Shown: positions 4,497-41,547, counted from the stretch's first letter. The stretch is DNA of 64,000 nt from Peptococcia bacterium (GCA_965228015.1 OZ245787.1:1377536-1441535), one strand, 5' to 3'. Program-made: numbers and translations. The notes: a model not told the origin generated them from the letters alone.

Positions 4497-5429
4497 TCAC
4501 ACCAAAGCATCCCCTCCTGCGCTGCTAACTCGATTGCGGCCTTCTTGTTTAGCTCTGTACAAGGCTTTGTCGGCCTTTTCTAATATTTCCTGAGGTCTTG
4601 AATCCATTTGTGGAGCCATTGTGGCAACTCCTATACTAATGGTTACAAATTTACTCACCTTTGAAGCTTCATGGGGTATTTTTAAATTCTCAACACCCTT
4701 GCGTAATTCTTCTGCAAGTTTCATAGCACCTTCATGATTTGTACCCGGAAGAGCACAGGCAAACTCCTCACCACCCCAACGGGCAACAAGATCTGCACCT
4801 CTCTTCAATAAGTTTTTAAGAGCATAAGCAACCATCTTAAGACACTCATCTCCCTCAAGATGTCCATAAGTATCGTTGTAAATTTTGAAAAAATCCAAGT
4901 CCAACATTAGCACAGACAATTTTTCTTCATATCTTCTGGCCCGGCTCCATTCAGCCTCTAAAATTTCATTAAACTTATTTTTATTAGGAATTTTAGTAAG
5001 TCCATCCAGCATACTATTTTCTTTAATTACATCCCTTAGCTTTTTTAATTCAATATGATTTTTAACCCGGGCTTTTAGCACAGGTATGCTGTAAGGTTTA
5101 GTTATATAGTCGATGGCGCCGATTTTAAGGCCTTTTTCTTCATCTGCTTCCTTACTTAAAGCAGTAACAAAAATTACTGGAATTTCTTTAGTTTCCGGCA
5201 AACTTTTTAAAACCTCAAGAACCTGGAATCCATTCATTTCTGGCATCATTATATCCAAAAGAATAAGATCGGGAACCGGAAGCTTTGTTGCCATTTCCAA
5301 GGCCTCCTCACCACTTGTAGCAACTCTTATTTGACATTCATCTTGCAAGGCAGTGCCAAGCACACGAATATTCATTAGTGTGTCATCTACAATTAGAATT
5401 AAAGGTTTTTCATTAATATTATTTCTCAT
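4497..5429 (-). CDS. PleD-like response regulator diguanylate cyclase (REC-GGDEF)
   Basis: REC motifs VDD, LDIMMP, DYITKP. DLDFFK, I-site RGAD and active site GGEEF. Probable ATG at 5429 overlaps the kinase stop. The stop codon now falls in the IS3 right end. Confidence 0.9.
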
Positions 5430-7190
5430 CAGCGTCCATCCTTTGTAACAATTTTTCAACTTGATTTCTTGCCCCAGGATAATTAAAGTTATCCAAATTT
5501 AACTTAATTTTCGAAATTTCCTCTTCAAGACCAGGACATACAGATGCTAATATTTCAATTTCTTCTATAAGGGTATCTGAAATGAAAGCATTTGAGTTAA
5601 CCATATCCTTTAAGATCTGCATTTTTTCCAGCAATTCCAGAGATACTTCTGCTCCCAGGTTTGTACAATATTTAAAAATCCCTTTCGTTTCTTTGAGTAT
5701 TTCTAAATTTTCCGGTTCGGCAATTTTTCTCAAGGGAAGCTTAATAATAAAAGCTGTTCCAACCAAGTCAATACTACTGTTTTCTACATGGATACTTCCA
5801 CCCATTAATTCAACCAATCCTTTTACTATTGCCAGACCAAGGCCTGCCCCTTTATGGGTTCTTATTGTTGAATCTTCAAGCTGGGTAAATCCTTGAAAAA
5901 TTTTGTTCTTTTTATCTTCAGGTATTCCTACCCCTGTATCAGATACTATTATCTGAACTAAATTATTCAAATTTTTTAGGGTAATTCGAATCTCTCCGAT
6001 AGATGTGTGTTTTACTGCATTCCCTGCAACATGAAGTAAAATTTGTTTTAATTTATCTTCATCCCCAAGATAAATATCTTTATATCCTTCTTTTATATCT
6101 ATCGTAAATTTTAGTTTTTTCTTTTGGATTTCCTCTCTATAATATGTTTCTATTTCTGAAAGAATTCTCTCAAAATTCACTTGTTTTTCTTCAAGGCTGA
6201 TTTTCCCAAGCTCTATGTCTGCAAAATCCAGAATTTCATTTATTACTCTTAGTAAGTCCCTGGCGGATTCTTGTATGTCATTAAAGTATCCAATAAGCTC
6301 ATCTTTATTGGAGCCTGTAAGTTCTTTTTTAATAATGTAGCTAAGACCAATTATTCCGTTCATCGGGGTGCGGATTTCATGGCTCATATTTGCCAGGAAC
6401 ATACTTTTTGTTAAATTTGCTGATTCTGCCGCTTCTTTTGCAGCTTTCAATTCTTCTTCTGTGTTAATTTTTTCTGTAATGTCCTGAGTTGAGCCTACAA
6501 GATATTTTATTTTTCCCATTTCTTCTATAGGGAAAAGCTTGACGTGCCAGGTTTTTTCCCTCCAGGGAGATCATATGTTTCAGTATATGAGAGATTATCT
6601 TTTTGCTTAAGGCATTTATGATAGTAGGAAGAGAGCACCGCTCCCAAATTCTCACCATATACTTGTTCAGGAGTTTTTCCAAGTATTTCATTAAGAGGAA
6701 CTCCTGTTTTCTCCTGATAAATTCTATTCACTCTAAGATGTAAGAAATCATAGGCACCTGTTATTTTATTATGCACTGGTTGTACAAGAAACATTGACTC
6801 TTCAGTGGCATTAAATACAATTTCATATTCCTTGAGGATAAGCTCATTTTCAATTGTATCAATAAATAAGGTCACAAATTTATTAAGACCTGTTTTAAAA
6901 ACAGAAACTCTAAAATATTTTCCCGTTTCTTTAACAAAAACTGTTTCTAGAAATGGTTTCCCTGTTTTGACAACTTCTCCATAATTTTTAATTAGATTTT
7001 TATCTGTACCCGGAAGCACTTGCAGAACAGATTTATTTTTAATTTCATTAAATAAAAGTCCGGTAAGCTCTTCGAATTTCTTATTTCCCTCGAGAAAAAT
7101 GTAATCCACAGGATTTCCGAACTCATCAAAGACCATCTCATGAAGAACATAAGCTTCTTGCAATTGATCAATAATATTATTTTTATCCAT
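5419..7190 (-). pseudogene. PAS-PAS histidine kinase split by a frameshift
   Basis: 7190-6525 holds two PAS-like folds and 6519-5419 holds [20 protein letters not shown] and GAGLGL. One A is missing in the run at about 6552-6557; restoring it gives [18 protein letters not shown]. Confidence 0.82.
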
Positions 7191-7225
7191 ATAATCATCC
7201 TAACGTTCTTAGCTATATATCCAAA

Positions 7226-8572
7226 TTATTCTGTATAAAAAGGATATTCATCAAAAGGAAATAATTCCTTGATCTCCACCCTAGTTCCCCCCGAAACAAC
7301 ATCAAATCCATCTTTTGAGATAGCTAAACCTTCAAAAAAAGCACCTTCAAAAGTGATTTTTCCATTTGGCGCAAAAAGTATTCCTGAAAGGCCACTCCCA
7401 CCAAGGCCTTTAATAGATATGTCGCCGGTTTTAGCAACAATGATTACATTGTTTGTTGTTGGTAAATATATATTTGAATCATAACTCTCTGAGTATATTT
7501 TTATGTTATCTGAGAGATTGGGATTCCCAGCAACATAACCATTAAGATCATACCAAAAATCATTTTTAAGTGAAGGCATTAAATAAGGTGCTGTTATTAC
7601 AGACGGAACCTGAGCTTGTTTAATGCATTTATCTAGAATAGATTGATCAAAGTGAGAAGGATATTTTATCTCCCCAGCATAATAAATTTTAGTATCCTCA
7701 GATAGAAAGGGTGTCCAACCCAGTTTAAGATCCCCACTTACATAAACATTACCATGAATTCTCGCGTCTTTTAACTTAAAATCTCCGTTAACAAAAATAT
7801 CTCCATATATATTTCTAGTTCCGCTCCATAAACCTAAACTCCCATTTACATGTATTTGACCCGGATTACTACTAAAGCCCAACTCATTACTTCCGTTATT
7901 AAGTTTGACATCTCCGCCGAAAAAAATATTTGATACATGAATGGATCCATTTGATGGCAAATCATTATTTTTTAATTCCGAAGAAATAATAACTGTAGCC
8001 CCATCTCCAACAATATCATCTCCCTTAAAGTAGAGGTTCGTTCCCATAATAAATACCTTATCTTCAATAAATATGGGTAATTTATTTTTCTTCACTTCCC
8101 ACTCCCAGCGGGCTATTTTTAATTCGTGAAGGTAAGGATCTCCTTTATCATCAGTACTTGTAATTTGTGCATTATACAAATTATTATTCCCCGGCTCTTT
8201 TTCAAGATCAATATCGACAATATCTTTAAAATCTATAACTTCAGTTCCTCTTTGCCTTGAAATGTAATACCTTCCCTGGTCATCTTGCAGTCTTTTATAC
8301 AATATCTCTTCTGTTGAATTCAGGTTAATTTTATATTCATAAGTTTCCGGAGGACCGCTTTCTACAACATTTTTGCAATTCCTCAAATCGTCTTTCAAAA
8401 AACTTTCCAAACTACGAATGTCATTTCTTTTTGCCGATTCTTTTATCTGCTGTGTCGTTATTTTTTGATTCATGAACAACATGGGGTAAGCGATGCTGCT
8501 TATTACTCCCAAAATTATTATTACAATCATCATTTCTACTAAAGTTCTGCCTTTGTTATTAAGTAAGTGCAA
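7226..8572 (-). CDS. Type IV pilin-like (PilW-type N-terminus) protein fused to a C-terminal beta-helix domain, paralog B
   Basis: KG-RTLVEMMIVIIILGVI class III signal. Repeats such as IYGDIFVNGDF and IHGNVYVSGDL. Shares FKIARW(E/R)W, WTP and APxG.I.GxxFxG motifs with paralog A. Confidence 0.72.
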   Translation of the reverse strand: MHLLNNKGRTLVEMMIVIIILGVISSIAYPMLFMNQKITTQQIKESAKRNDIRSLESFLKDDLRNCKNVVESGPPETYEYKINLNSTEEILYKRLQDDQGRYYISRQRGTEVIDFKDIVDIDLEKEPGNNNLYNAQITSTDDKGDPYLHELKIARWEWEVKKNKLPIFIEDKVFIMGTNLYFKGDDIVGDGATVIISSELKNNDLPSNGSIHVSNIFFGGDVKLNNGSNELGFSSNPGQIHVNGSLGLWSGTRNIYGDIFVNGDFKLKDARIHGNVYVSGDLKLGWTPFLSEDTKIYYAGEIKYPSHFDQSILDKCIKQAQVPSVITAPYLMPSLKNDFWYDLNGYVAGNPNLSDNIKIYSESYDSNIYLPTTNNVIIVAKTGDISIKGLGGSGLSGILFAPNGKITFEGAFFEGLAISKDGFDVVSGGTRVEIKELFPFDEYPFYTE

Positions 8573-8629
8573 GTCATACCACCCCTGAATATTTTGCTGA
8601 TAAAATTCCGATACCTTTTTTAAACACCC

Positions 8630-9046
8630 TCAACTGCTGGTTATGGTTACCTCTCCGTTAGCGGCTATTGTTGCAGATATTGTAACACTCTGTATTACTT
8701 TTGTCCCACCCAAAATTTCACCTGTAGAAGAAATTGAAGTTGCAGTAAGTTGTGTAATTGTATACCTGTAAGTCAGGGCTCCTCCTAGATTCCAATCCGC
8801 TTGAAGTGGTGGCGTTGATACCAGGGGATTTTCGTTTTCTATCAAAGACAGAGCGTGTTCTATTCCTGCCTGGGCAAGATAATTTGCCCTCTCTCGCTCC
8901 TCTGTTCCTAAATTCAGGCGAACTTCTGTATTTAAAGTAAGGAGCATGGTACTTGTTAGAGTAATGACCACTGCAACGACAATTACAACAAGAACAAGTG
9001 CGTAGCCTTTATTATTTTTTATCATAGCTTGCATCATTTTTTGCAT
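8630..9046 (-). CDS. PilX-like minor pilin (N-terminal domain only)
   Basis: KG-YALVLVVIVVAVVITL without Glu5, plus the PilX-type motif ANYLAQAGIEHA. Confidence 0.7.
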   Translation of the reverse strand: MQKMMQAMIKNNKGYALVLVVIVVAVVITLTSTMLLTLNTEVRLNLGTEERERANYLAQAGIEHALSLIENENPLVSTPPLQADWNLGGALTYRYTITQLTATSISSTGEILGGTKVIQSVTISATIAANGEVTITSS

Positions 9047-9074
9047 CTCTCCTTAAAACCTTCAGCTTGAACTT

Positions 9075-9112
9075 AGCCTGCGGATAACGCGCTGATTTTG
9101 GAAGCGTCCCCT
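9075..9112 (-). repeat. Gene-end motif copy 3: AGGGGACGCTT-N14-TTATCCGCA-GGCT
   Basis: 36/38 identical to 1567-1604. Overlaps the TAG stop of the 9111 gene. Confidence 0.8.
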
Positions 9113-10586
9113 AATCCGCGGGGAGCATTTCGTTGAGGAATGGGTACAGGTTTGCGTCTGGGATGTAGGTTTCTATGCCTTCGAAGGTTACTTCCATTCC
9201 TCCTGAGGACATGTCGGCTCCTTCTGATGCTATAACCAGACCTGTGAAACTTGCTCCTCCGATTGTTACATATCCGTATGGTGCATAGATTACTCCGCTA
9301 AGATTAAGCCCTCCTCTTGATATAGTTATATCTCCTGCTAAATTGACTACTATAACATTGCTGATTGTCCCACCAATTGACTGAGTGTAATTTCCTGAGG
9401 TTACATATACTTTGGCGCCATTTGATAAAGGACCATTTAGCACATACCCATTATCAGCATACCACTGGGCATCTCTTGGTACTGGTACTTCATATTCTGG
9501 AACTGATTTTTGTGCTACTGCTACTGTTGTGACCATCTGTTCAAAGTGAGTTAGTGTGTATGATGCGGGGTGAGTAATTATTCCAAAATAATATACCATT
9601 GAGCCCGTTGTGAAACTGGGTGTCCAATTTACAGTTACATTTCCATTTACGTACATGTTTCCCTCTAAGGTTCCGTCCTTTATATACAAGTTACCATTAA
9701 CATAGACATCACCTTCAACTAATCCATTGGAGAAATTAAAATCCCCTTGAACATATACGTTACCATATATTTTTCCTGAGCCGGACATATTCAAATCACC
9801 ATTTACATAAACGTCTCCGTAAATGTCTGCCGCACCTGCCAATGTAACATTTCCATCTACTACTATTTCTCCTGGTTCTGTTATTGAACCAAGACTTCTG
9901 TTCCCATTTATATCTATATCCCCTGTAATATATAAATTAGAAACTCTTACTTTTGCATTTCCGTTAAGGTCACTGCTAGTGAGACTTGAGTCCACATAAA
10001 TTGTAGCTCCATCACCAGTTACTGTACCCCCACCCATTGCAAACCCTGCGCCAATTACAAATAAGTCTTCTTCTTCAAGGAGCTCATAAATAGCCTGCTC
10101 TTCTTCAGCCATAATATGCCAACGCCAGCGGGCTATTTTAAATTCATATATACTTTCTGTTCCTGTTTCTTCCATAATATATAACTTTACCTGAGCTAAA
10201 TCTTCTGTATCTGCCAGGTCATATATTTCTGCATTTGTTATTTCCGGGAAATTAATGTCTTTGCCTTCAAATCTTCTAACCACATGGTAAGTCCCATCTT
10301 CACCTTGAGCCCGGGTATAGATAATAGACTTGTCCAGATGTTTAACTGTAGAACGAAATCCCACAGGCTCGCCGAGATCTTTAACTACGATATCATAAGA
10401 TTCCCGAATATCTTCTTTGAGAAAATTGGCAATTGCTCTGACTTCGTTTCTTTCAAGGGAATTGCCTAGCTCATCTGTCACCAATTTATTATTTAAAAAT
10501 AAAACGGAGTGGGCGATAGCTCCAATAACTCCTATAATCAAAATTACTATGAGCATTTCAATTAAAGTTGTTCCTTTTTCATTCAT
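9111..10586 (-). CDS. Type IV pilin-like (PilW-type N-terminus) protein fused to a longer beta-helix domain, paralog A
   Basis: MNEKG-TTLIEMLIVILIIGVIG from ATG 10586 with a GGGGTGAG RBS. Tandem 16-17 aa repeats G[DN]VYVNG[DN]L. Confidence 0.75.
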   Translation of the reverse strand: MNEKGTTLIEMLIVILIIGVIGAIAHSVLFLNNKLVTDELGNSLERNEVRAIANFLKEDIRESYDIVVKDLGEPVGFRSTVKHLDKSIIYTRAQGEDGTYHVVRRFEGKDINFPEITNAEIYDLADTEDLAQVKLYIMEETGTESIYEFKIARWRWHIMAEEEQAIYELLEEEDLFVIGAGFAMGGGTVTGDGATIYVDSSLTSSDLNGNAKVRVSNLYITGDIDINGNRSLGSITEPGEIVVDGNVTLAGAADIYGDVYVNGDLNMSGSGKIYGNVYVQGDFNFSNGLVEGDVYVNGNLYIKDGTLEGNMYVNGNVTVNWTPSFTTGSMVYYFGIITHPASYTLTHFEQMVTTVAVAQKSVPEYEVPVPRDAQWYADNGYVLNGPLSNGAKVYVTSGNYTQSIGGTISNVIVVNLAGDITISRGGLNLSGVIYAPYGYVTIGGASFTGLVIASEGADMSSGGMEVTFEGIETYIPDANLYPFLNEMLPAD

Positions 10587-11170: not shown

Positions 11171-11818
11171 TTAAGATAAGTTTTTCTGGAAAGGAATAAT
11201 TTTCTCGGACAAAAGATACATTTCCTGATAAAGTCTTCCCCAGAAGCACAGCCCCCTTTGCCAGCTTCCTCTCAAATAAACCTTTTCGTCCATAGAAAGT
11301 TCTTGGCCAGACTTGATTTTTTTCTCAATTGCGTCAATTTCCTCGTGGTCATTTATTACAGTATCTAAAAATACATAAACGCTCCTCATTTCCTCTTCAG
11401 AAAGAACGTTTTGAAATTCCAGCTCAATTAATTTGTTGGTCAGCCAGTATGTGGCAATTGTTTTTGCAAGAACCATAACATTTTTATAATTAAAAATCAG
11501 ACAATTTGAATTTACAAAATCTCTGATTTGTTTAATATTATTTAAGGCTATTTCTTTAATCATTTCCTGATCTTCCGCAAAAACTTCTCCGCTTATAATA
11601 GAAGATTTTAGTTTCTCAGTAGTAATAGTTAATTTTTCCTGAAACTTTTCATCATCTTCTTGGAGATATTGTTTCATTTCCTCCACAGCAAAAGCTGTAC
11701 TGCTTGCGGACACTATCCAAAAAAATCCTTCCGAGGAAAACAGTTCAGGATTTATATTGTGAAGATCATTATCAGAGAAATCAATTAACTGATTATATCT
11801 TATTTTCAATTGGGCCAC
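11171..11818 (-). CDS. Hypothetical protein, about 215 aa
   Basis: Long open frame. A GTG at 11818 follows AAGGAA with a TATAAT upstream. The longer 11941 start would overlap the Gx gene. No motif recognised. Confidence 0.55.
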   Translation of the reverse strand: MAQLKIRYNQLIDFSDNDLHNINPELFSSEGFFWIVSASSTAFAVEEMKQYLQEDDEKFQEKLTITTEKLKSSIISGEVFAEDQEMIKEIALNNIKQIRDFVNSNCLIFNYKNVMVLAKTIATYWLTNKLIELEFQNVLSEEEMRSVYVFLDTVINDHEEIDAIEKKIKSGQELSMDEKVYLRGSWQRGLCFWGRLYQEMYLLSEKIIPFQKNLS

Positions 11819-11900: not shown

Positions 11901-12408
11901 TTAACAGGAAACGTAAACCCGATTAAAAGAATAGAAACCAATCGTATCTATAAAAAGTCCCATTATAACTCCTGAAACAGTTAGTATTGGCATATAGCTA
12001 AAAATCCGGAAATTTTCCATTATAATTGCTGCTGCCAAAAGCTGACCAGCATTATGAGCTATTCCACCGACAACGCTGATACTTTAAATACTAATAACAT
12101 CCTTGCCGTATTTATAAAGAATAGACATCAGGGCTCCGCTTAGTAAACCTCCAGTAAGGCTGAAAAATTAAACTGCCCAAACTTCCCGCGAAGAGACTTA
12201 CCAAAAAACTACGCAAGATTATTATAATTATTGTATCTTTAAAACCTAAAAAATATACTCCGTACAAGGTTGTAATATTTGCCAAACCAAGTTTTACACC
12301 GGGAATTGGTACCGGGGCAGGAATGTAACTTTCCAATATACGCAAAGAAAGAGCCAGGGAGATTAAAATTGCAGTCCTAGCAATTTTACTGGGTTTAATT
12401 ATTCCCAC
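11901..12408 (-). pseudogene. Gx transporter (heptaprenyl diphosphate synthase component I-like) membrane protein, disrupted
   Basis: LESYIPAPVPIPGVKLGLANI motif. Frameshift near 12160, then an in-frame TAA before ISVVGGIAHNAGQL. Confidence 0.82.
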
Positions 12409-12766
12409 CTCCTGATTCTTCTATATAAATAGCAGTTTTATAAGGCAGACAGATTATGCTCTCACCAATCTTAGATATTTCTCCAGTTTTAACACATATC
12501 TGATTTGGGCAGGTTGAGCTTTCCATAAAAATTTTTCCTCTTTCTGCAACAACATGAAAGGATCTGTTCTCATCAAAATTAAAATGAAATTCTTCTTTTT
12601 TCATATCCAGGGATAATTTTATTTTTTTAACAACCTGTCCATCTACTTCAATTAATGCTTCCTTGCTGTCAGAGCTATCTTTATTAATAATTGATGCTAT
12701 TGTAAAAATGGAAAGGAAGACCAAAAGAATAAATATAATATATTTGTCACCTTTTTTTAATTTCAT
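12395..12766 (-). CDS. NusG domain II-containing membrane-anchored protein
   Basis: MKLKKGDKYII signal anchor and STCPNQICVKTGEISKIGESIICLP three-Cys motif. Canonical neighbour of ApbE and Gx genes. Confidence 0.88.
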   Translation of the reverse strand: MKLKKGDKYIIFILLVFLSIFTIASIINKDSSDSKEALIEVDGQVVKKIKLSLDMKKEEFHFNFDENRSFHVVAERGKIFMESSTCPNQICVKTGEISKIGESIICLPYKTAIYIEESGGGNN

Positions 12767-13761
12767 ATTTGCCTCTTTTTACTAGCTGGAACTCTTGTTC
12801 AGAAATTCCGGAAGTCAAAAATATTTCATTATTTTTTGTAACAAAAACTCCTTCTGCTCCTTCATAATCTTCTAAAAGTTTTATTCCCTTATCAAGTCCA
12901 AGGGTAAAAGCAGCTGTGGAAAGAGCATCTCCGTCCAGGGATTTATCTGATATTACCGAAACGCTTAATAGTTCATTTTCCACAGGGTAGCCGGTTTCTG
13001 TATCAAAAATATGATGATATATTTTTCCCTTTTCTTTAAAATATCTTTCATGTATTCCCGATGTAACCAGTGACTGATTTTTTAAACTTGCTATCCCCAG
13101 AAAATCGCCCCTTTTCATAAAAGGATCTTGAATGCCAAACTTCCAAACATTTTCTCCAATGGCATATACACCCCCCAAGATTCAGGATGGCGGTATATAT
13201 TTCATTATTTTTTAATATTATTACCGCTCTGTCTGCTGCATATCCTTTTGCTATAGCTCCAAAATCAGCAAACATTTCTTCATTTTCTATATGTATTATT
13301 CCGGGACTAATTGTTTTAATTTTATTATAGTCAACTAAGGAAATGCATCTTTCCATTTCTTCTTTTTGAGGAATTTTATTCTCTTCTCCAGGGGAAATAT
13401 TCCAGAGCTTTGTCAAAGGGCCAACAGTAATATCAAAGGCTCCCTGAGTAATTTCTGAAAAATACATAGACTTCTCTAAAAGATACACCTCTTCTTCATC
13501 CAGATAAACAAGTTCGCCTCCTCTTATCATCCCTGCAGTAAAATTATTTTCAATGCTTTTAATTTCATTAAATACTTCTTTAAAAACTTTATCTGTATTA
13601 TCTTTATTTAATTCATTTTCATCCCCATATAAAATTACTTCTACAACAGTACCCATATGGAATTCAGTTTTTCTTACTTTTTCATTTTTTTCATCGGTAC
13701 TGCATCCAAATAAAATTAATGAAACTATTAATAATGTAACTGCCAAAATTTTATTATTCAT
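12747..13761 (-). pseudogene. apbE: FAD:protein FMN transferase ApbE lipoprotein, frameshifted
   Basis: Lipobox LFGC, MGTVV, GAFDITVGPL, DFGAIAKGYAAD, TSGIHERYF, YHHIFD and ADALSTA-like motifs. Frame break at a G6 run near 13172-13177. Confidence 0.9.
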
Positions 13762-13773
13762 ATTAATTTCCTT

Positions 13774-14558
13774 TTATACTGCTCTTACGGAGCACAAGGG
13801 AGACACCAAAGGAATTCCCCTTTTATCATAATTTACCTCTGCTTTGACACCATATACTTTTTCCAGCATTTCTTCTGTTATAACTTCATGGATTAAACCT
13901 GAACTAAAAGGCTGACCATTCTCATCAATAATTACAACATGATCTGCGTAACGACAGGCAAGATTAATATCATGGAGAATCAAAATTATATCCACCTTTT
14001 CTTTTTCTTTGACTTTTTCCAATAACTGGCAAAGCTCCAGCTGTTTTTGAAGGTCAAGAGAATTGACTGGTTCATCCATTAGTATTAGTTTTGGTGTTCT
14101 GACCAAGGTTTGAGCAATAAATACAAGCTTTTTTGTCCACCACTAAGTTCATCAAAATTTCTAAAAGCAAGGTCTTTTATATTTAATGTGTCCAATATAT
14201 TCATTACCAGATCAACATCTTCATCAGACATTTTATACCCCAAATCAGGTAGACGTCTCAACATTACCATTTCAAAAATAGTAAGAGTTGAAGTATCTAA
14301 ATCCATTTGAGGAAGATAAGACATAAACTTTATCTTCTCTTCCAGTTTCATGTTTGCAAGACTTTTATCTTTATAAAAAATTTCTCCTTCATGTTTTAAA
14401 AGGCCAAAGATAGACTTTATTAATGTGGATTTCCCTGCCCTATTTGGTCCAAGAATTACATTAAGACCTTCTTTGAATTCAACATTTAAATTTTTGAAAA
14501 CATGATGACATTTGCCTCTTTTTTTATAAGCAAAGGATAAATCTCTTACTTTTAACAT
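13774..14558 (-). pseudogene. ABC transporter ATP-binding subunit (FecE/BtuD-like), frameshifted
   Basis: Degenerate Walker A GPNRAGKST, LSGGQK, MDEP and LHDINLA split over two frames at about 14110. Confidence 0.85.
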
Positions 14559-15589
14559 TACATTGTCCTTATTTTCGTAAAGATTTTTGTTACAAAAAAC
14601 GGAATTCCTATAACTGCTGTTACCAGACCAATTGGAAGTATTACTCCAGGAATAATAATTTTACTTACTAAAAAGGCAAAAGAGAGCACAAAAGCTCCCA
14701 CTAATCCTGATAAGGGCATGAAAAATCGTTGGTCTTCTCCTGTTAATTGCCGGGCAACGTGGGGAGCAATAAGGCCTACAAAGCCTATTGTTCCCCACAA
14801 AACTTACTGCAACAGCTGAAAGGAGAGAAGAAATCAATATAGCTAATCTTCTTACTTTACCCGTATCAACCCCAATGCTTTTAGCTTTTGAATCATCAAG
14901 GGTCATTGCTGTTAATTTCCAGGCATTTTTAAATAAAATAAGAAAACATACTACCAAAACAAATAAAACGATATAAAATTTACTCCAGGTAATTTTTAAC
15001 AAACTTCCGAAATTCCAGAAAATTAAACTCTGGAGCTGATCCTCATCGGCAATATACTGTAATATCATTGTTAATGCATTGAATAGGAAATTTAGAGCAA
15101 TACCAAATAAAATAATTGCAGTTTTCCCGATTTATTTTTGAAGGAAAAACAAATATATAGCACCAGCAACAATTAAAGCAAAAACAAAAGCATTTACAGT
15201 TACCACCAAAGTTTCAGAAACTTTAAAAATACTGGCATTAAGAATTAACCCTAAGGCCGCCCCAAAAGAGGCTGCAGCAGAGATGCCAAGGGTATAAGGG
15301 CTTGCAATAGGATTTCTGAGGATAGTCTGTATTTCACAGCCACCTATCCCCAGAGCTGCTCCTACCACAATCGCCATCAGGGCCATTGGCAGTCTGATGT
15401 CTTTTATAATAAGGGGAGTATTATTATCACCTTCATTAAATATGAGAACTTTTAATATTTCCTTTATTAATATTGATGATGAACCTGTAGATATGTTAAA
15501 CAAAAACAATAGCACAAGGGCTGCCAAGAATATGGAAATAATTATTATTCTGTTTTTATTAATTTATTGTAAGAATCCCTATTGGACAT
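14558..15589 (-). pseudogene. FecCD/BtuC-family permease, multiple frameshifts
   Basis: IRLP, RNPIASPYTLGISAAA and GTIGFVGLIAPHVAR motifs spread over at least three frames. Confidence 0.85.
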
Positions 15590-17107
15590 TACTTGTATCT
15601 ACCTTCGTAAACCATGTTATAATATCTGTATCTAACAGCATATATCTATCAAAAAGCTCTTGTAATACAGCTTCTAGATCAAGGTTTGTAAACTCTTCAG
15701 GATAAAATAACTTTGCCATTTTTAAAGTTGGATAAAATGCATATATTGATCTGCTTGTTGAATGGGCAAATTCATAAACATTTCCATTTTTCACAGCTTG
15801 AAGATTTGACCATCTATTACGATTTAGAATATCAAAGCTTGGTTCTTTTTTCTCTCTTAGAATGTCAAGCCAACCATCATTTACACCACTTAAAATTACA
15901 AATTCAGGATTTTTCTCTAAAACATATTTCGGATCAAGGGTGTTGCTTGCTCCCCCAGACGCTGCAATATTTAAAAGAACTTCATCTGCAATATTTTTTC
16001 CTCCAGCCACTTTTACTGGAAGACCCCATCCACTCTTGCTAGTTGCTGTTGAATCAAATACTTGCGAGTAACCAGATTTTTCATAATAAACAGTAGGAAT
16101 GTTTTCTTTTTTATTTAGGATTTTAGATGCAATTAGTTTAAATTGGTCATCTATAAAAGCTGATGCTTCATTTGCTTTCTCTTCTTCTTGGAAAATTTTT
16201 CCAAGTATCTTCATTGTATCTGTTACAGATGTTTCAAGTTTTTTCCGGGGACATCTACTAAAATAATTTTAATTCCAGCACTTTCCAAAACATTTTCAAC
16301 TTCAAGAGCATATTTATGAGCTCCCATAGCTGAGTTTGCAACAAGAACTTCCGGTTGCATAGCTAGTGGCATTTCCAAATCGAAAGGAGCATTATGATCA
16401 GAAATCTGGCCAACATGTTCCATATAATTACCAACAACTGGTGTGTATAACTCTGCATACTTATTTAAACCATGACCGCCATCTTGCCCGGAGCCAACTA
16501 ACATGTTAAAAGCATCTTCACCTTTTAACGGGATAATATATTCAAAAACATCCATCGTACTAACTGCATAGGTTGATAAAGGCAACGGGATCTCTACTTC
16601 TCTACCTTTAGCATCAGTTATTATTACTGAGCTGGATTTTTCTGCTTTTTCTGGCATTTTATTACTATCTATTGAAGGAAGAGGATAATCTTCAGCCAGT
16701 CCAATATTTTCTTTAGACCAACCAAAATCAAGCAAATCTCCTCCAGCTTTTTCTATTGATGTGGCAACAGAATTTAATATCCCTGCCATTGTGATGGAAG
16801 CACCTGAAACACCATCTACATCAAGAGATTGCTTTTCGATAATTAACTCCGGCAGCTTTTCAATTGCTACAGTACCTACCCCATCTGTTTCTGAGTGATC
16901 ACCAATAATTACATCAACAATTTTTCCATCTTTATCTACCTTAGTTGTAACTTCAATTTTTCCATGATAACCATCAACAGTTTCTGTATATATACCTTCC
17001 TTAAGAGTTTTATCCTGCTTATCAGCACAACCTGCTAATACAAAAACAAGGGATAATGACAAAAATAACAGCAGCGCAACCTTACAAAAATTTCTAGTCT
17101 TTTTCAA
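15579..17107 (-). pseudogene. Lipoprotein: FMN-binding (flavinylation) domain fused to a Fe-siderophore/cobalamin-type solute-binding domain, single frameshift
   Basis: Lipobox LAGC. GYHGKIEV..SET..DVDGVSGASIT matches the FMN_bind [ST]GA[ST] motif (16796-16807). The rest is a type III SBP. One A is missing in the run at 16239-16244; restoring it gives about 509 aa. Confidence 0.82.
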
Positions 17108-17136
17108 TTCAATCTTCTCCTTTTTTATTCAGTTTT

Positions 17137-17983
17137 TTATACTTTCCAAATGATGTGTCCCGTAACCGCAACACTCTCTTCGTTAATCATTCCATCTTCA
17201 GCAATTTTTTCTAAATATCTTTTGATTTCATTTTTATCTTCATTACTAAGCTGATTTTTAATCGAAAGCTTATTTGTATAGCTTTCAAAAACTTCATTTA
17301 AAGGCTGTGAACTTTTCCAATTTCTTTCGTTATAACTTACCTCTGGATAATAGCCCATATTCCAGAGGATATTAAAAGCATAATAAATTTTATCTTCGAG
17401 AATCCCTGTTTTGCCTTCCTCTTTATTAATCAGATTAAATAATGCATCTTCAACCTTGGATTCCCGTTTGACCCAAGCACTTAAGTAGCAATAACCAGAG
17501 GAAGCATCACACATTTTTTTAATGTTTCATAATTATGTATCGCTGGAGACATAGATGCGAAAACCAAGTCAAACTTTTTATCCCATTGTTTTTCTTCAAG
17601 ATTAATATCTACCCAGTTAACTTTCATTGGATGAACATTTTCCAGACCAAGTTTTGTGGCTTTATCTTGCAAAATTTTAAGCATATTTTCAGAAATATCC
17701 ATGGAAAATACTTCTTGGCGCTTTTCCGCCATTGGAATTGAGTGGGTTCCTGGACCGCAGCCAATATCTAAAAACCTTGGCTTTGTGGTGCAAAATGTTT
17801 CTTTCCGTCATAGATTCAATTAAAATGCTTGTTTTTTCTCCTTGTCCTTTAAATTTTGATTAAAAGAGTCCGCGCGTCCATTCCAAAACTCTTCACATGC
17901 TGTAAAATCCATATCACAGTAGCTCCAAAGATTTTTCCAATATTCCAGTTTATTTTTGTCTTCTTATTTCTTTAATAAATCAC
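17137..17983 (-). pseudogene. Class I SAM-dependent methyltransferase, fragmented
   Basis: Motif I LDIGCGPGTHSIPMA, DISENML and FDLVFASMSPAI occur across several frames. The start is approximate. Confidence 0.8.
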
Positions 17984-18024
17984 TACCTTTCCTTTTATAC
18001 ATTTCATGATAAAAATTTTTATAT

Positions 18025-18064
18025 AAAAAAAGGCCCCAGATTTTTAATAAAATCCAAGAGACCT
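18025..18064 (-). terminator. Riboswitch expression-platform terminator
   Basis: On the minus strand, GGTCTCTTGGATTTT-ATT-AAAAATCTGGGGCC followed by T7, upstream of the methyltransferase. Confidence 0.65.
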
Positions 18065-18144
18065 TCCTATTTTTAAGTCTTCATGATTAAGCATCCAAAA
18101 CCGATGCTTTAATGACTAATAATTATCCCATTATTGTCATAGAT

Positions 18145-18320
18145 TTCCTCTAAGGCAGGTCTCCTGGCTCACGGGTCATTCTCCCCTCAACCTTCCCAGA
18201 ACAATTAATGTTCCAGTGGTATACTGAGGTTCGTCTTCGCATACAGTGGTGGGTCCGCGTCGTTTTTAACGATCTCCCTTATTCTCCTCAAATAATTTTG
18301 AGGCACCTTAAATTCCGAAA
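18145..18320 (-). ncRNA. Cobalamin (B12) riboswitch
   Basis: The minus strand has AAGGTGC..AATAAGGGA..CGGACCCACCACTGT..CCACTG..GGGAAGG..GAGCCAGGAGACCTGCC, i.e. the conserved core elements and B12 box. Confidence 0.92.
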
Positions 18321-18469
18321 AATATTAAGTTGTATTTTGGTGTTGAAGTTATTCTAGCACAACTTTTTTTAATGCAAATTATTTGCAAATTCCAAAAATA
18401 TTTTAAGTTTTAACACTTTGCCTTGAGGGTATAATTAAATAAGCACAAGATAAGAAGGAGGAAAGCATT

Positions 18470-19331: not shown

Positions 19332-20718
19332 GGTTCTTTGTCAAATGTTGGGGTAACTCAATTAGATTAGATTCCATGAGTACCGCATTGAAAAATGCGG
19401 TACTTTTTTAAATTGTTTTTAGTTTATTACGTGCATTATTCTGTTTTTGAATCTCCAAAAATTTCTTACACCATAAGCATTTCTTTTTAAAACCTTAATT
19501 TTGTTATTAACTCCTTCTGTATATCCGTTAGTATAAGTACAAGTAAATGAATTAAGAATATATTTCTGCCAGTTGAAAATGGTTCTGGAGCATTTATCGA
19601 ATTCTTCAAACTCACAGGACATAACAAACATATACCAGGCTTTCAAATTCTTTTTTGCACTTTCTAAATCACTGCTGTCAACAAAGTTATAAAATTTTTC
19701 TTTTAACATATAAGCTTTTTGCAGTTTCTCAGAAGTAGCAAGCATAACGTTTACCTGGTCAATTTCTTCAGGAGTTAAATACTTCATTCTTTTTAAGAGA
19801 AGGGAGCGACTTCTTTTGAAATATCTTCGCCTTTCCTTGGCAAATTTCTTTTGCTCATCTTTCCTAATTCTTTCAAATGCCCAAGTGACCTGCCTAATGA
19901 AATGGAATTTATCGATAATGATAGTTGCATTTTTAAAATATGTTTCAATAATATCCTTGTAAGGTTGCCACATATCCATAATGAAGTATTTTACTTTATC
20001 CCTGTCATTGAATTTCCTGAAATAGTCCGATAAAATGTGTTGTTCTCTTCCGTGAAGAATATCAAGTACCTTCTTGTTTTGGGGATCAGTTAATATGCAC
20101 TGGTACTTTTTGCCCCCGGCATTACCTTTAAATTCATCAATAGAGATTGCTTCGGGCAATTTTGTTAGGGAATAGTTTATGAATCTAAAAAGCCTGAGAG
20201 CCGTTGATGGTGAAATATTATTCTCTTTGGCAATATCAGATACAGAGTAAACATTTTTCATTCGAGTAATTATGTATTTTATCAGCCTGCTGGTCATTCT
20301 TTGATAGCGGGGGAGAAAATCATTTTTTTCGTAGAATTTTTTATTGCAGTGATTACAAACGTACCTTCTTTTTTTATAGTAAAGGTAGGTTTTCTTCCCT
20401 GAGATGGAAATATCTTTTATCATTTGAATTCTGTAATCATGAACTTTATTGGTTTGTTGATGGCATTTGGGGTAATTGTGAGTTTTAATCTCCAGAGAAA
20501 AAGAAAAGGACATTGAATCAGAAGAAGTTTCTAATTGTTCTAAAATTATCCCTTTAAAACCAATTAATTTTTTAATATAATAGTTATTATAGAGCATAAG
20601 TAAATTCCTCCTTAGATTACAGTGGGTGTTCTCTAATATGGATTTACCCAATGCTCTGTATTTTTTCGCAAATAAATGTCAGAATGGTTTTTACCACCCC
20701 AACATTTATTGTAGAACT
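19332..20718 (-). mobile_element. ISL3-family IS, copy 2, no target duplication
   Basis: Near-identical to 2985-4372 in reverse. The terminal base is changed (AGAACT) and the flanks TTAAAACT / TTTATTTA differ. Confidence 0.92.
19419..20597 (-). CDS. ISL3 transposase, apparently intact (392 aa from ATG 20597)
   Basis: Continuous frame with an AAGGAGG RBS and SIDEF, DMW, TNGYTEG motifs. Confidence 0.9.
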   Translation of the reverse strand: MLYNNYYIKKLIGFKGIILEQLETSSDSMSFSFSLEIKTHNYPKCHQQTNKVHDYRIQMIKDISISGKKTYLYYKKRRYVCNHCNKKFYEKNDFLPRYQRMTSRLIKYIITRMKNVYSVSDIAKENNISPSTALRLFRFINYSLTKLPEAISIDEFKGNAGGKKYQCILTDPQNKKVLDILHGREQHILSDYFRKFNDRDKVKYFIMDMWQPYKDIIETYFKNATIIIDKFHFIRQVTWAFERIRKDEQKKFAKERRRYFKRSRSLLLKRMKYLTPEEIDQVNVMLATSEKLQKAYMLKEKFYNFVDSSDLESAKKNLKAWYMFVMSCEFEEFDKCSRTIFNWQKYILNSFTCTYTNGYTEGVNNKIKVLKRNAYGVRNFWRFKNRIMHVIN

Positions 20719-40078: not shown

Positions 40079-40133
40079 AATCTTTCTTGATATAAAATAG
40101 TTATTATTGTAATATATTTGAAATAGAATATTA

Positions 40134-40357
40134 AAAAGTAATGATCAGGAAGTTTTAAATTTCTTTGTTGCAGAGAGCTGATGGAAGGTGAAAATCAGTA
40201 CAAGTATTTAAAATTCCGCCTGTAAACTGAGCATGATGAATATTTCCGTTGGTTACGTTATAACCGTCAAGTGGAATAGCGACAATGTTGTTATTTAATT
40301 TGGGTGGCAACGCGGGTAGACAGAACCCGTCCCATATTTTGGGACGGGTTTTTTTAT
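40134..40357 (+). ncRNA. Serine-specific T-box riboswitch with terminator
   Basis: AGAGAG/GGTGAAA stem I motifs, TCC (Ser) specifier at 40215-40217, T-box AATTTGGGTGGCAACGCGG (UGGC pairs with G73 of tRNA-Ser) and terminator AACCCGTCCC..GGGACGGGTT-T tract. Confidence 0.9.
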
Positions 40358-40389: not shown

Positions 40390-41547
40390 TTGAAAACAGA
40401 AAAATTATTAATGATACCGGGTCCAACAATGATTCCTGAAAAAATACTTAATGCAATAAATACCCAGGCTGTTGGGCATAGAACAGAATATTTTGAAAAT
40501 ATTATAAAAAATGTAACCATTAAACTTAAGAAAATATTCAGAACAAATAGAGATGTATATATTTTGACTTCTTCCGGAAGTGGAGCGATGGAAGCTTCTG
40601 TAGCAAACTTTATTAATGAAGGAGATAAAACCTTAGTATTAGTAAACGGGAAATTCGGAGAGAGATTTGTAAGCTTGAATAAAATTTATAGAGCAGAAGT
40701 TAGTGAAATAACTTATCCTTTAGGAGTTTCTGCAAATCCGGAAGATGTAGAAAAATTTCTTAAAAATAATCCAGACACTAAAGCAGTCTTTATGCAACAA
40801 AATGAGACATCCTCAGCGATACTCAATGGTGTTTTTGCAATTGCGGAGTTAGTAAAAAAATATGAAGCTTTATTAATTGTTGATTCAGTTTCAGGTTTAG
40901 GTGTTACAGAGATGAAAATGGATGAATGGGGAGTTGATGTAATTGCTGCAGGGTCTCAAAAAGCATTTATGTTGCCACCGGGATTAGCTTTCGTAGCTGT
41001 AAGTGAAAAAGCAGAGAAGAAATTGGTCTCTTGTGGTAACAAAAAGTATTATTTTTGCCTAAAAGCAGCAAAGGAAAACTTGGAAAAATCGACGACCCCA
41101 TACACTCCAGCAACTTCTTTAATTAAAGGTTTAGATGCTAGTTTAGATATGATATTAGAGTATGGAATAGAAAAAAACTATGAAAAACAAGAAAAATATA
41201 CAAAAATGCTGAGAGATGCTTTTAAAGCAATTGGTTTATCTATGGTTGTAGAAAATGAAAAGGCCGCTTCTCGTGCTGTTACAGGAGTGTATGTTCCGGA
41301 AGAAGTAAAGTGGTCTGAATTTGAGAAAATTCTTAGTGAGAAATACAATGTATTAGTTGCCGGAGGCCAGGACGAACTTAAAGGAAAAATATTCAGAGTT
41401 GGGACGATTGGCTACTTAGGAGATCTTGATATCTTATCTGGAATAGCTGCAATTGAAATGGCGCTTTATGAAGCGGGATATAAATTTGAGGTGGGCAAAG
41501 GTGTAAGTACAGCTCAAAAAATACTAATAGAGAGAGGTAGAGATTAA
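40390..41547 (+). CDS. Class V PLP aminotransferase (serine-pyruvate / SerC-like)
   Basis: [38 protein letters not shown] and TPYTP motifs. Under the Ser T-box. Confidence 0.88.

Follow-up and report, generated by a model that had tools for sequence, protein, structure and literature searches.

Among described transport systems, BtuFCD is one of the closest to the locus considered here. It joins a class III substrate-binding protein (SBP) with a Peripla_BP_2 domain to a FecCD/BtuC-type permease and an ATPase, forming an ATP-binding cassette (ABC) importer that lies near cob/cbi genes and is under OFF control by the cobalamin (B12) riboswitch RF00174. The locus that shares these features is an operon on the minus strand of a 64,000-nucleotide (nt) stretch of DNA from a Peptococcia bacterium (GCA_965228015.1 OZ245787.1:1377536-1441535; this whole stretch is referred to as the window), where it occupies positions 11,901-18,320. 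The aptamer is followed by genes for a class I methyltransferase, a lipoprotein SBP, a permease, an ATPase, the transferase ApbE and two membrane proteins, NusG_II and Gx. Unlike BtuF, however, the window-type SBP is about 240 residues longer and carries a putative covalent-flavin domain, a feature that, to our knowledge, no described Btu system possesses. We read the locus as the nonfunctional remnant of an ABC import operon repressed by B12, in the live form of which a putatively flavinylated lipoprotein would reductively capture a cobalt ligand, either a chelate or a corrinoid, and we assign this reading a probability of about one half.

Importers of the YiuABC and NiuBDE/CeuE types also have FecCD-type permeases, and YiuA, 4mo9 and TM0189 are the nearest relatives of the binding domain encoded here, both by sequence and by fold. 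Class III SBPs that bind complexes of metals with small chelators, including Ni/Co-histidine in Helicobacter, feed permeases of this type. Those importers differ from the present one in being regulated by Fur or NikR, and they have neither a B12 riboswitch nor a redox cofactor. A binding component that modifies its substrate during capture is known in BtuM, which carries out a cysteine-mediated decyanation of B12, although BtuM is a membrane protein resembling the S-subunits of energy-coupling factor (ECF) transporters and uses a Cys ligand, whereas the protein considered here has an unrelated fold and a putative flavin.

The flavin domain itself points to a second group of systems. ApbE-dependent extracytosolic flavinylation has been linked to reductive iron assimilation, with FMN_bind proteins associated with P19/FTR1, VIT1 and PepSY iron assimilation and with five transmembrane electron-transfer classes, the NapH-, MsrQ-, PepSY-like, DsbD and NQR/RNF-like proteins (Meheust et al., 2021; PMC8238504). 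The present operon shares with these systems an extracytosolic FMN_bind domain, a [ST]GA[ST] acceptor, an ApbE lipoprotein in the cluster and, in the mechanism proposed below, the logic of extracytosolic metal reduction as an aid to uptake. It departs from them in that the flavin domain is fused to an ABC SBP, the signal is B12 rather than iron, and none of the five transmembrane classes is present.

In Listeria, EetB (PF07456) is an ECF S-subunit that exports flavin adenine dinucleotide (FAD) for the ApbE enzyme FmnB, and the genomes in which eetB co-localizes number 3,328 for eetA and 2,169 for apbE (Rivera-Lugo et al., 2023; PMC9973259); NusG_II (PF07009) carries the label EetA in that study's Data Set S1. 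The same three components, ApbE, NusG_II (EetA) and PF07456 (EetB), recur in the present operon, and adjacent EcfA/A′/T genes are found in two related loci (L054 and L009), an arrangement also described in that study. The Listeria clients are PplA, fumarate reductase or Rnf, whereas the client here would be an SBP and the genes are under a B12 riboswitch; the Ndh2, DmkA/B and PplA of the Listeria electron-transfer locus are absent.

The preliminary description of this locus, made from the sequence, knew of no account that ties flavinylation to B12 control, and a full-text search of the literature likewise found none. ABC transporters, PF01497 and cobalamin go unmentioned in the main text of PMC8238504 and in two later flavinylation papers, and the full-text search found nothing on an FMN_bind/Peripla_BP_2 fusion, which may nonetheless stand undiscussed in the supplementary tables of PMC8238504 or PMC9973259. 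Nothing relevant was found on TrmO together with cobalamin or on the PDB entries 9HRJ, 9HRP, 9IF3 and 9HT5. Thus, although B12-riboswitch ABC importers and ApbE clients are each already known, their combination seems undescribed.

Linkage of the importer to cobalamin control

A database search with the reconstructed binding protein returned 147 relatives from Clostridia, Desulfitobacterium, Desulfosporosinus and Fusobacterium, nearly all of them 490-540 residues long, containing both domains and sharing 47-92% identity. A locus scan using one genome per species yielded 51 loci (given L numbers here) and added Tissierellia, Desulfobacterota and one spirochaete. The fusion is a compact family that forms about two clusters at 50% identity. 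Riboswitches were counted in 49 informative species-level loci, using Rfam together with R1, a covariance model made from nine aptamers; R1 contains 18 base pairs only and served as a detector that was cross-checked against Rfam. Gene counts refer to 48 non-redundant loci and were confirmed by hidden Markov models built from the loci.

The unit conserved across the informative loci consists of the riboswitch, the flavin-domain SBP, the permease and the ATPase. Of the 49, 38 have an upstream cobalamin riboswitch on the same strand, and the remaining 11 comprise five Fusobacterium loci and L010, L012, L021, L039, L040 and L044. In these last six, the SBP-permease-ATPase trio closes a long operon of co-directional genes for anaerobic B12 biosynthesis (cbi), which holds CbiC, CbiD, CbiG, CbiJ, CbiK, corrin methylases, CobQ-like genes and CbiMNQ(O) and which in L044 has a riboswitch at its head. 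The PF01497 domain of the SBP, followed by genes for a FecCD permease and an ATPase, places the system among class III importers, and, where the contig extends far enough, nearly all loci keep the three genes side by side, the exceptions being L046, with an insertion between the SBP and FecCD genes, and L057, which is truncated. Actinobacterial orthologs that have no flavin domain (L052 and L053) also keep the riboswitch. Because the riboswitch is present in 38 loci, six more are embedded in cbi operons and the flavin-free orthologs retain it, the tie of this binding-protein family to B12 status is robust and extends beyond a single operon. The proposal that the flavin-domain binding protein belongs to an ABC importer under B12-riboswitch control is thereby borne out at the level of gene context.

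The leader in the window has the elements expected of such control. Its aptamer (18137..18325, minus strand) matches RF00174 along the full model (positions 1-189) with 100.2 bits (E = 7.4e-24), above the gathering score of 31.5 bits, and the orthologous aptamers of L001 and L004 score 112 bits each. Just 5′ of the aptamer is a sigma-70-like promoter (18351..18378, minus strand), recognized by consensus match alone and consisting of TTTGCA, a 16-nt spacer and a TG-extended TAGAAT. An intrinsic terminator hairpin with a U7 run (~18027..18068, minus strand) lies 69 nt 3′ of the aptamer; its minimum free energy is -32.2 kcal/mol (z = -4.4), and 0 of 200 shuffled sequences fold as well. With this strong hairpin and U7 run following the aptamer, the leader looks like an OFF switch that acts through transcription termination. 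Relative to L001, the terminator stem in the window has a 1-nt deletion at 18038.

A second, probably regulatory, element is common upstream of the unit. A single-domain TrmO_N protein of 135-165 residues, scoring above the TIGR00104 cut-off, is encoded immediately before the flavin-SBP unit in 25 of the 48 loci (for example L010:9326-9820, L020:9549-9977 and L058:9241-9648, with 22 more), and a MarR regulator is encoded upstream of TrmO_N in 16 of 48. The TrmO_N stop codon falls 3-35 nt before the aptamer in about 13 loci, and in four loci the TrmO_N gene is located between the aptamer and the SBP gene. In L060, which encodes the most distant fusion found (P0123, 40% identity) and is without a riboswitch, MarR and TrmO_N form one polypeptide (L060:5186-6004) whose gene overlaps the SBP start. 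This gene fusion suggests that MarR and TrmO_N probably act as a pair dedicated to regulating the transporter; that the TrmO_N domain reads S-adenosylmethionine (SAM) is speculation.

Separately, L012 encodes, at 6683-9414, the anaerobic ribonucleotide reductase NrdD and a small 4Fe-4S (Fer4_12) partner, which is probably the activase NrdG, within an array of cbi, cobalt and transporter genes just 5′ of TrmO_N, as do L039 and L040. The presence of NrdD in this array fits a composite low-B12 regulon.

Flavin domain and maturation genes

The SBP gene of the window (15579..17107, minus strand) encodes a signal with the lipobox LAGC, an FMN_bind domain at about residues 36-120 (PF04205; 7.8e-14) and a Peripla_BP_2 domain (2.9e-12), an arrangement that identifies it as an extracytosolic FMN_bind protein. 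The acceptor motif reads D-x-V-S-G-A-S, with S101-G-A-S104 at its core and the codon of the putative acceptor, Ser104, at 16796-16798. Among 116 full-length homologs, 114 have [STAG]GA[ST] at this position, G102 and A103 are invariant, and 81 have a lipobox-like motif. The acceptor residue is usually Thr, and is Ser in the window's clade. At 47-92% identity, both the fusion and the acceptor motif are conserved in the sequences of Bacillota, Fusobacteriota, Desulfobacterota and Spirochaetota. The best solved match to the flavin domain is a unit of the clostridial multi-flavinylated protein 8p2b (E = 7e-17), followed by RnfG, and there are many multi-domain proteins among the matches. In L007, an extra stand-alone FMN_bind gene (L007:8654-9064), encoding 136 residues that are 69% identical to the N-terminal domain of the SBP, lies between the riboswitch and the methyltransferase gene.

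The genes for ApbE (PF02424), PF07009 and PF07456 are adjacent in the window, as they are in the FmnB/EetA/EetB module. In L054 and L009, Gx adjoins two ABC ATPases (EcfA/A′) and a CbiQ-family ECF-T gene, and no ECF-T/ECF-A/A′ module is present in the operon of either the window or L001. The identity of PF07456 as the FAD exporter EetB and of PF07009 as EetA indicates that ApbE, NusG_II and Gx make up a kit that delivers and attaches flavin, and not an electron conduit. Since the kit is under the same riboswitch as the transporter and decays with it while the neighboring genes stay intact, its client was apparently the binding protein.

Across the family, the kit is much rarer than the transporter unit, with ApbE linked in 6 of 48 loci, NusG_II in seven and Gx in six. 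The preliminary description had bound the riboswitch, the importer and the kit into one coupled system. The riboswitch-transporter link held, but the coupling of apbE, NusG-II and Gx did not: the kit genes are unlinked in about 42 of the 48 orthologous loci, so that, judged from gene neighborhoods, their coupling to the transporter is specific to a few clades, namely that of the window and a few Peptococcaceae-like genomes (L009, L016 and L054). The class I methyltransferase is similarly clade-specific, being linked in 5 of 48 loci, and the idea that it tailors the ligand found no support. Assignment of the methyltransferase as a known corrin or lower-ligand enzyme was rejected, the matches being sub-threshold and at the level of the fold (the best NCBIfam match is CpaM, with 49.6 bits against a cut-off of 180, and CbiT scores 27 against 78).

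The kit had also been described earlier as an electron-transfer toolkit fed from membrane quinones. For this operon that description was rejected, given the EetB and EetA identities above and the absence of conduit genes. A Pfam search of the operons of the window, L001 and L004 found no Ndh2 and no NapH-, MsrQ-, PepSY-, DsbD- or Rnf-type protein, so that none of the families defining the transmembrane classes of Meheust et al. (2021) is encoded, and the operon genes of the same three loci include no Ndh2, PplA or DmkA/DmkB, setting the operon apart from the Listeria-type locus. A candidate quinol-linked electron donor occurs in L009 alone, where genes for a NapC/NirT-like multihaem cytochrome c and for ResB and CcsA separate those of the ATPase and ApbE (L009:13578-15902), an insertion that fits an electron-fed flavin.

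Substrate, mechanism and alternative readings

Several lines of evidence bear on what the SBP binds. Its identity as BtuF was rejected: the NCBIfam model NF002894 gives 24 bits where its cut-off requires 234, and BtuF itself appears neither among the PDB sequence matches at E <= 0.01 nor in the Foldseek top 50 obtained with a predicted model of the binding protein (pLDDT, the predicted local distance difference test, 80; pTM, the predicted template modeling score, 0.75). The closest structures to the binding domain are 4mo9, Yersinia YiuA, 4ovk and TM0189, followed by binders of siderophores, haem and Ni-His. YiuA, which is 22-26% identical to the binding domain, has been solved with iron and a catecholate fragment and with Fe-nitrilotriacetate. 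The binding protein has invariant His, Tyr, Glu and Arg residues across the family. CbiK is encoded within 10 kb in 9 of 48 loci. From this sequence and neighborhood evidence, we conclude that the substrate is probably a cobalt-bearing compound, and a cobalt chelate appears to be slightly favored over a corrinoid.

The sequence comparisons show the operon's anatomy, its tie to the riboswitch, the acceptor motif, which maturation genes are present and that this copy has decayed. For the live system we infer flavinylation itself, what is transported, which way and to what end electrons move, and a source of electrons, which the operon does not encode. When adenosylcobalamin is scarce, the riboswitch terminator would not form and the operon would be transcribed. 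EetB (Gx) and EetA (NusG_II), together with a shared ECF module, could then export FAD, and the ApbE lipoprotein would move the flavin mononucleotide (FMN) moiety of FAD onto Ser/Thr104 of the binding protein. The flavinylated protein would capture a cobalt-bearing ligand, and the tethered flavin could donate an electron, by which Co(III) would become Co(II). Dihydroflavins reduce cob(III)alamin, and complexes of Co(II) are labile, unlike the kinetically inert ones of Co(III). The reduction might thus labilize an inert chelate or strip the upper ligand from a corrinoid, after which FecCD and the ATPase would import the ligand. The electrons might come from multi-flavinylated wire proteins, from Rnf or from a cytochrome like that of L009.

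A number of observations weigh against this reading. Neither Rfam nor R1 finds a riboswitch in the five Fusobacterium loci, and none is found at E <= 0.01 for the distant fusion of L060. The FMN-less orthologs in Actinobacteria indicate, at the level of sequence, that the flavin is not essential to transport chemistry. The top NCBIfam match of the permease is BtuC (189.7 bits), with FhuB and FecD at 183. No transmembrane electron-transfer protein is encoded in the operon. Finally, CbiMNQO is encoded in the same operon in four loci, where a second cobalt system looks partly redundant.

The strongest competing reading, less probable than the first but one to be taken seriously, is that the system is a corrinoid importer, a paralog of BtuFCD for B12 or cobinamide, in which the flavin attached to the binding protein converts cob(III)alamin into cob(II)alamin there. 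Before import, this step would either release the upper ligand (CN, OH or a protein His) or free the corrinoid from other molecules that compete to bind it. Classic BtuFCD loci likewise have a FecCD-type importer behind a B12 riboswitch, the BtuC match of the permease agrees with such a role, and CbiMNQO already supplies Co2+ in the four loci just mentioned, so that a simple Co2+ role would be redundant there. The reduction of cob(III)alamin by free dihydroflavins and the precedent of BtuM as a B12 transport protein that alters its substrate are also in keeping with a corrinoid. However, the binding domain is far from BtuF and near metal-chelate binders, and the unit adjoins early-pathway genes (CbiK, cbi) rather than the salvage genes cbiZ or cobU/S/T. 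The named hosts, moreover, are presumably for the most part de novo producers of B12. In addition, six loci hold a second, plain Peripla_BP_2/FecCD/ATPase set, which in L017 and L018 is under its own riboswitch. The best match of the plain-set SBP is the tetrapyrrole binder IsdE in all three cases tested (BtuF matches weakly in one), and the resemblance to IsdE suggests that this plain set could fill the corrinoid role instead.

A broader formulation, held tentatively, is that these proteins form a family of redox-active ABC binding proteins in which a covalent flavin reduces a cobalt compound (a Co(III) chelate, or "cobalophore," or a corrinoid) at the moment of capture, under dual control by the B12 riboswitch and MarR/TrmO_N. 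In such a dual arrangement, a SAM-binding TrmO_N might use SAM to gauge B12-dependent methionine synthesis.

It is improbable, by comparison, that the flavin does not act on the ligand at all and serves as a general extracytosolic electron-transfer or anchoring module, or as a redox sensor that gates delivery to the permease. Such a role could accommodate the FMN-less L052 and L053, which keep both the riboswitch and the TrmO_N context, the similarity of the FMN domain to those of the multi-flavinylated "wire" protein 8p2b, and an operon that encodes no electron donor. It is difficult to reconcile with the conservation of the fusion and its acceptor motif across four phyla, with a dedicated flavinylation kit under the same riboswitch in six loci, and with the decay of that kit alongside the transporter.

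Operon genes, their decay and biological meaning

Rfam and Pfam matches agree with the gene list, order, strand and coordinates given by the preliminary description, which had also called the copy largely pseudogenized and placed the live system in relatives. Both statements are upheld by alignment of the window to L001 (91.6% nt identity; 13.7 kb compared), against which the operon shows nine frameshifting indels and three nonsense codons, all CAA>TAA, and by the finding of the whole operon intact in L001-L003 (~92% DNA identity) and in the more distant L004-L006. Window and relatives share their flanks, with hpf and cspA upstream and pilin-like genes downstream.

Within the operon, all genes being on the minus strand, the SAM-dependent methyltransferase pseudogene (17137..17975), pieces of which match Pfam Methyltransf_31/25/11, has frameshifts at ~17838, 17774 and 17521 and a CAA>TAA change at 17966. 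The SBP gene is interrupted by a 1-nt deletion in an A-run at ~16245; its intact ortholog P0001 has 509 residues and is 92% identical to the window SBP. The FecCD-type permease pseudogene (14558..15589; three FecCD pieces, 4.5e-26, 4.2e-22 and 4.3e-20) has frameshifts at ~15559 and 14796 and CAA>TAA at 15134, and the ATPase pseudogene (13774..14558), with an ABC_tran piece (4.6e-15), has a 1-nt deletion at ~14135. The pseudogene for ApbE, the FAD:protein FMN transferase (12747..13761; lipoprotein signal LFGC; two pieces, 1.8e-31 and 9.7e-34), bears a 2-nt deletion at ~13172, and that for the Gx/Hpre_diP_synt_I (PF07456) membrane protein of the EetB family (11901..12408; two pieces, 5.4e-19) a 1-nt insertion at ~12162 and CAA>TAA at 12086. 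The sole intact operon gene encodes the NusG_II-domain membrane protein of the EetA family (12395..12766; 123 residues; 5.8e-27). In intact relatives the methyltransferase has 279-288 residues, the SBP 509, the permease 343, the ATPase 261, ApbE 338, NusG_II 123 and Gx 147.

The junctions of L001 are tight: 29 nt separate the methyltransferase and SBP genes, SBP/FecCD and FecCD/ATPase overlap, 12 nt separate ATPase from ApbE, ApbE and NusG_II overlap, and 49 nt lie between NusG_II and Gx. This spacing leaves no room for a transcript boundary ahead of apbE and supports the predicted co-transcription of ApbE with the transporter in the window's clade.

Damage is concentrated in the operon. The 6.9 kb of coding sequence flanking it in the same alignment contain, besides two in-frame indels of 3 nt, a single frameshift. 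The lone flanking frameshift is a 1-nt indel at ~6556 that splits a histidine-kinase gene into open reading frames (ORFs) 5419-6519 and 6525-7190 (minus strand), which are a single ORF in L001. Because the three CAA>TAA substitutions cannot be homopolymer errors and the damage is local, the pseudogenization is real, and the operon copy in the window is dead through local decay. That the operon is really intact and its pseudogenes a sequencing or assembly artefact is very improbable and was rejected: six of the nine frameshifts are indeed single-base length changes in runs of at least four identical bases, five of them in A6-A8, but the nonsense substitutions are independent, the operon contains 22 of the window's 279 A/T runs of at least six yet 9 of the 10 frameshifts in the sequence compared, long ORFs elsewhere are intact despite 257 such runs, and other lineages are damaged independently. 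The latter cases comprise an internal SBP deletion (L031:10001-11321), a split SBP (L050:2623-4115), insertions that separate genes (L046:11488-17466) and the truncation in L057, and they suggest recurrent loss; the repeated decay in the window, L031, L050 and L046 implies that the system is conditionally dispensable.

A conserved protein of 212 residues, without a Pfam or NCBIfam match, is encoded directly 3′ of Gx in the window's clade (window 11171-11809, minus strand). Its gene, g212, was rejected as an operon member, being intact while the operon decays, without a Pfam match and part of the downstream pilin-like cluster; a clear terminator was looked for after Gx and none was found. Right after cspA is an intact transposase-like ORF of 410 residues (19419-20651, minus strand), ISL3-like by reading of its sequence, with no library search made. 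Synteny ends at this ORF; relatives have an amino-acid ABC transporter upstream of cspA, and the contig of L001 ends there too. Farther away, and unrelated to the operon, a T-box leader (RF00230; 105.7 bits) at 40132-40337 (plus strand) lies 5′ of an ORF at 40390-41547.

Acquisition of cobalt or corrinoids limits the growth of acetogens, sulfate reducers, organohalide respirers and gut anaerobes, and how these anaerobes gain strongly complexed cobalt is an open question. If the proposed reading is true, ABC binding proteins, whose textbook task is to "bind and deliver," would gain a reduction step, and the family would include the first SBP to work with a catalytic redox cofactor. ApbE flavinylation would likewise be extended from respiration and iron to the B12 economy, as its first link to B12 or cobalt. 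Intact orthologs occur in the culturable Desulfitobacterium hafniense, Fusobacterium nucleatum, F. necrophorum and Alkalibaculum, and the repeated pattern of decay may help to reveal the niche in which the system pays.

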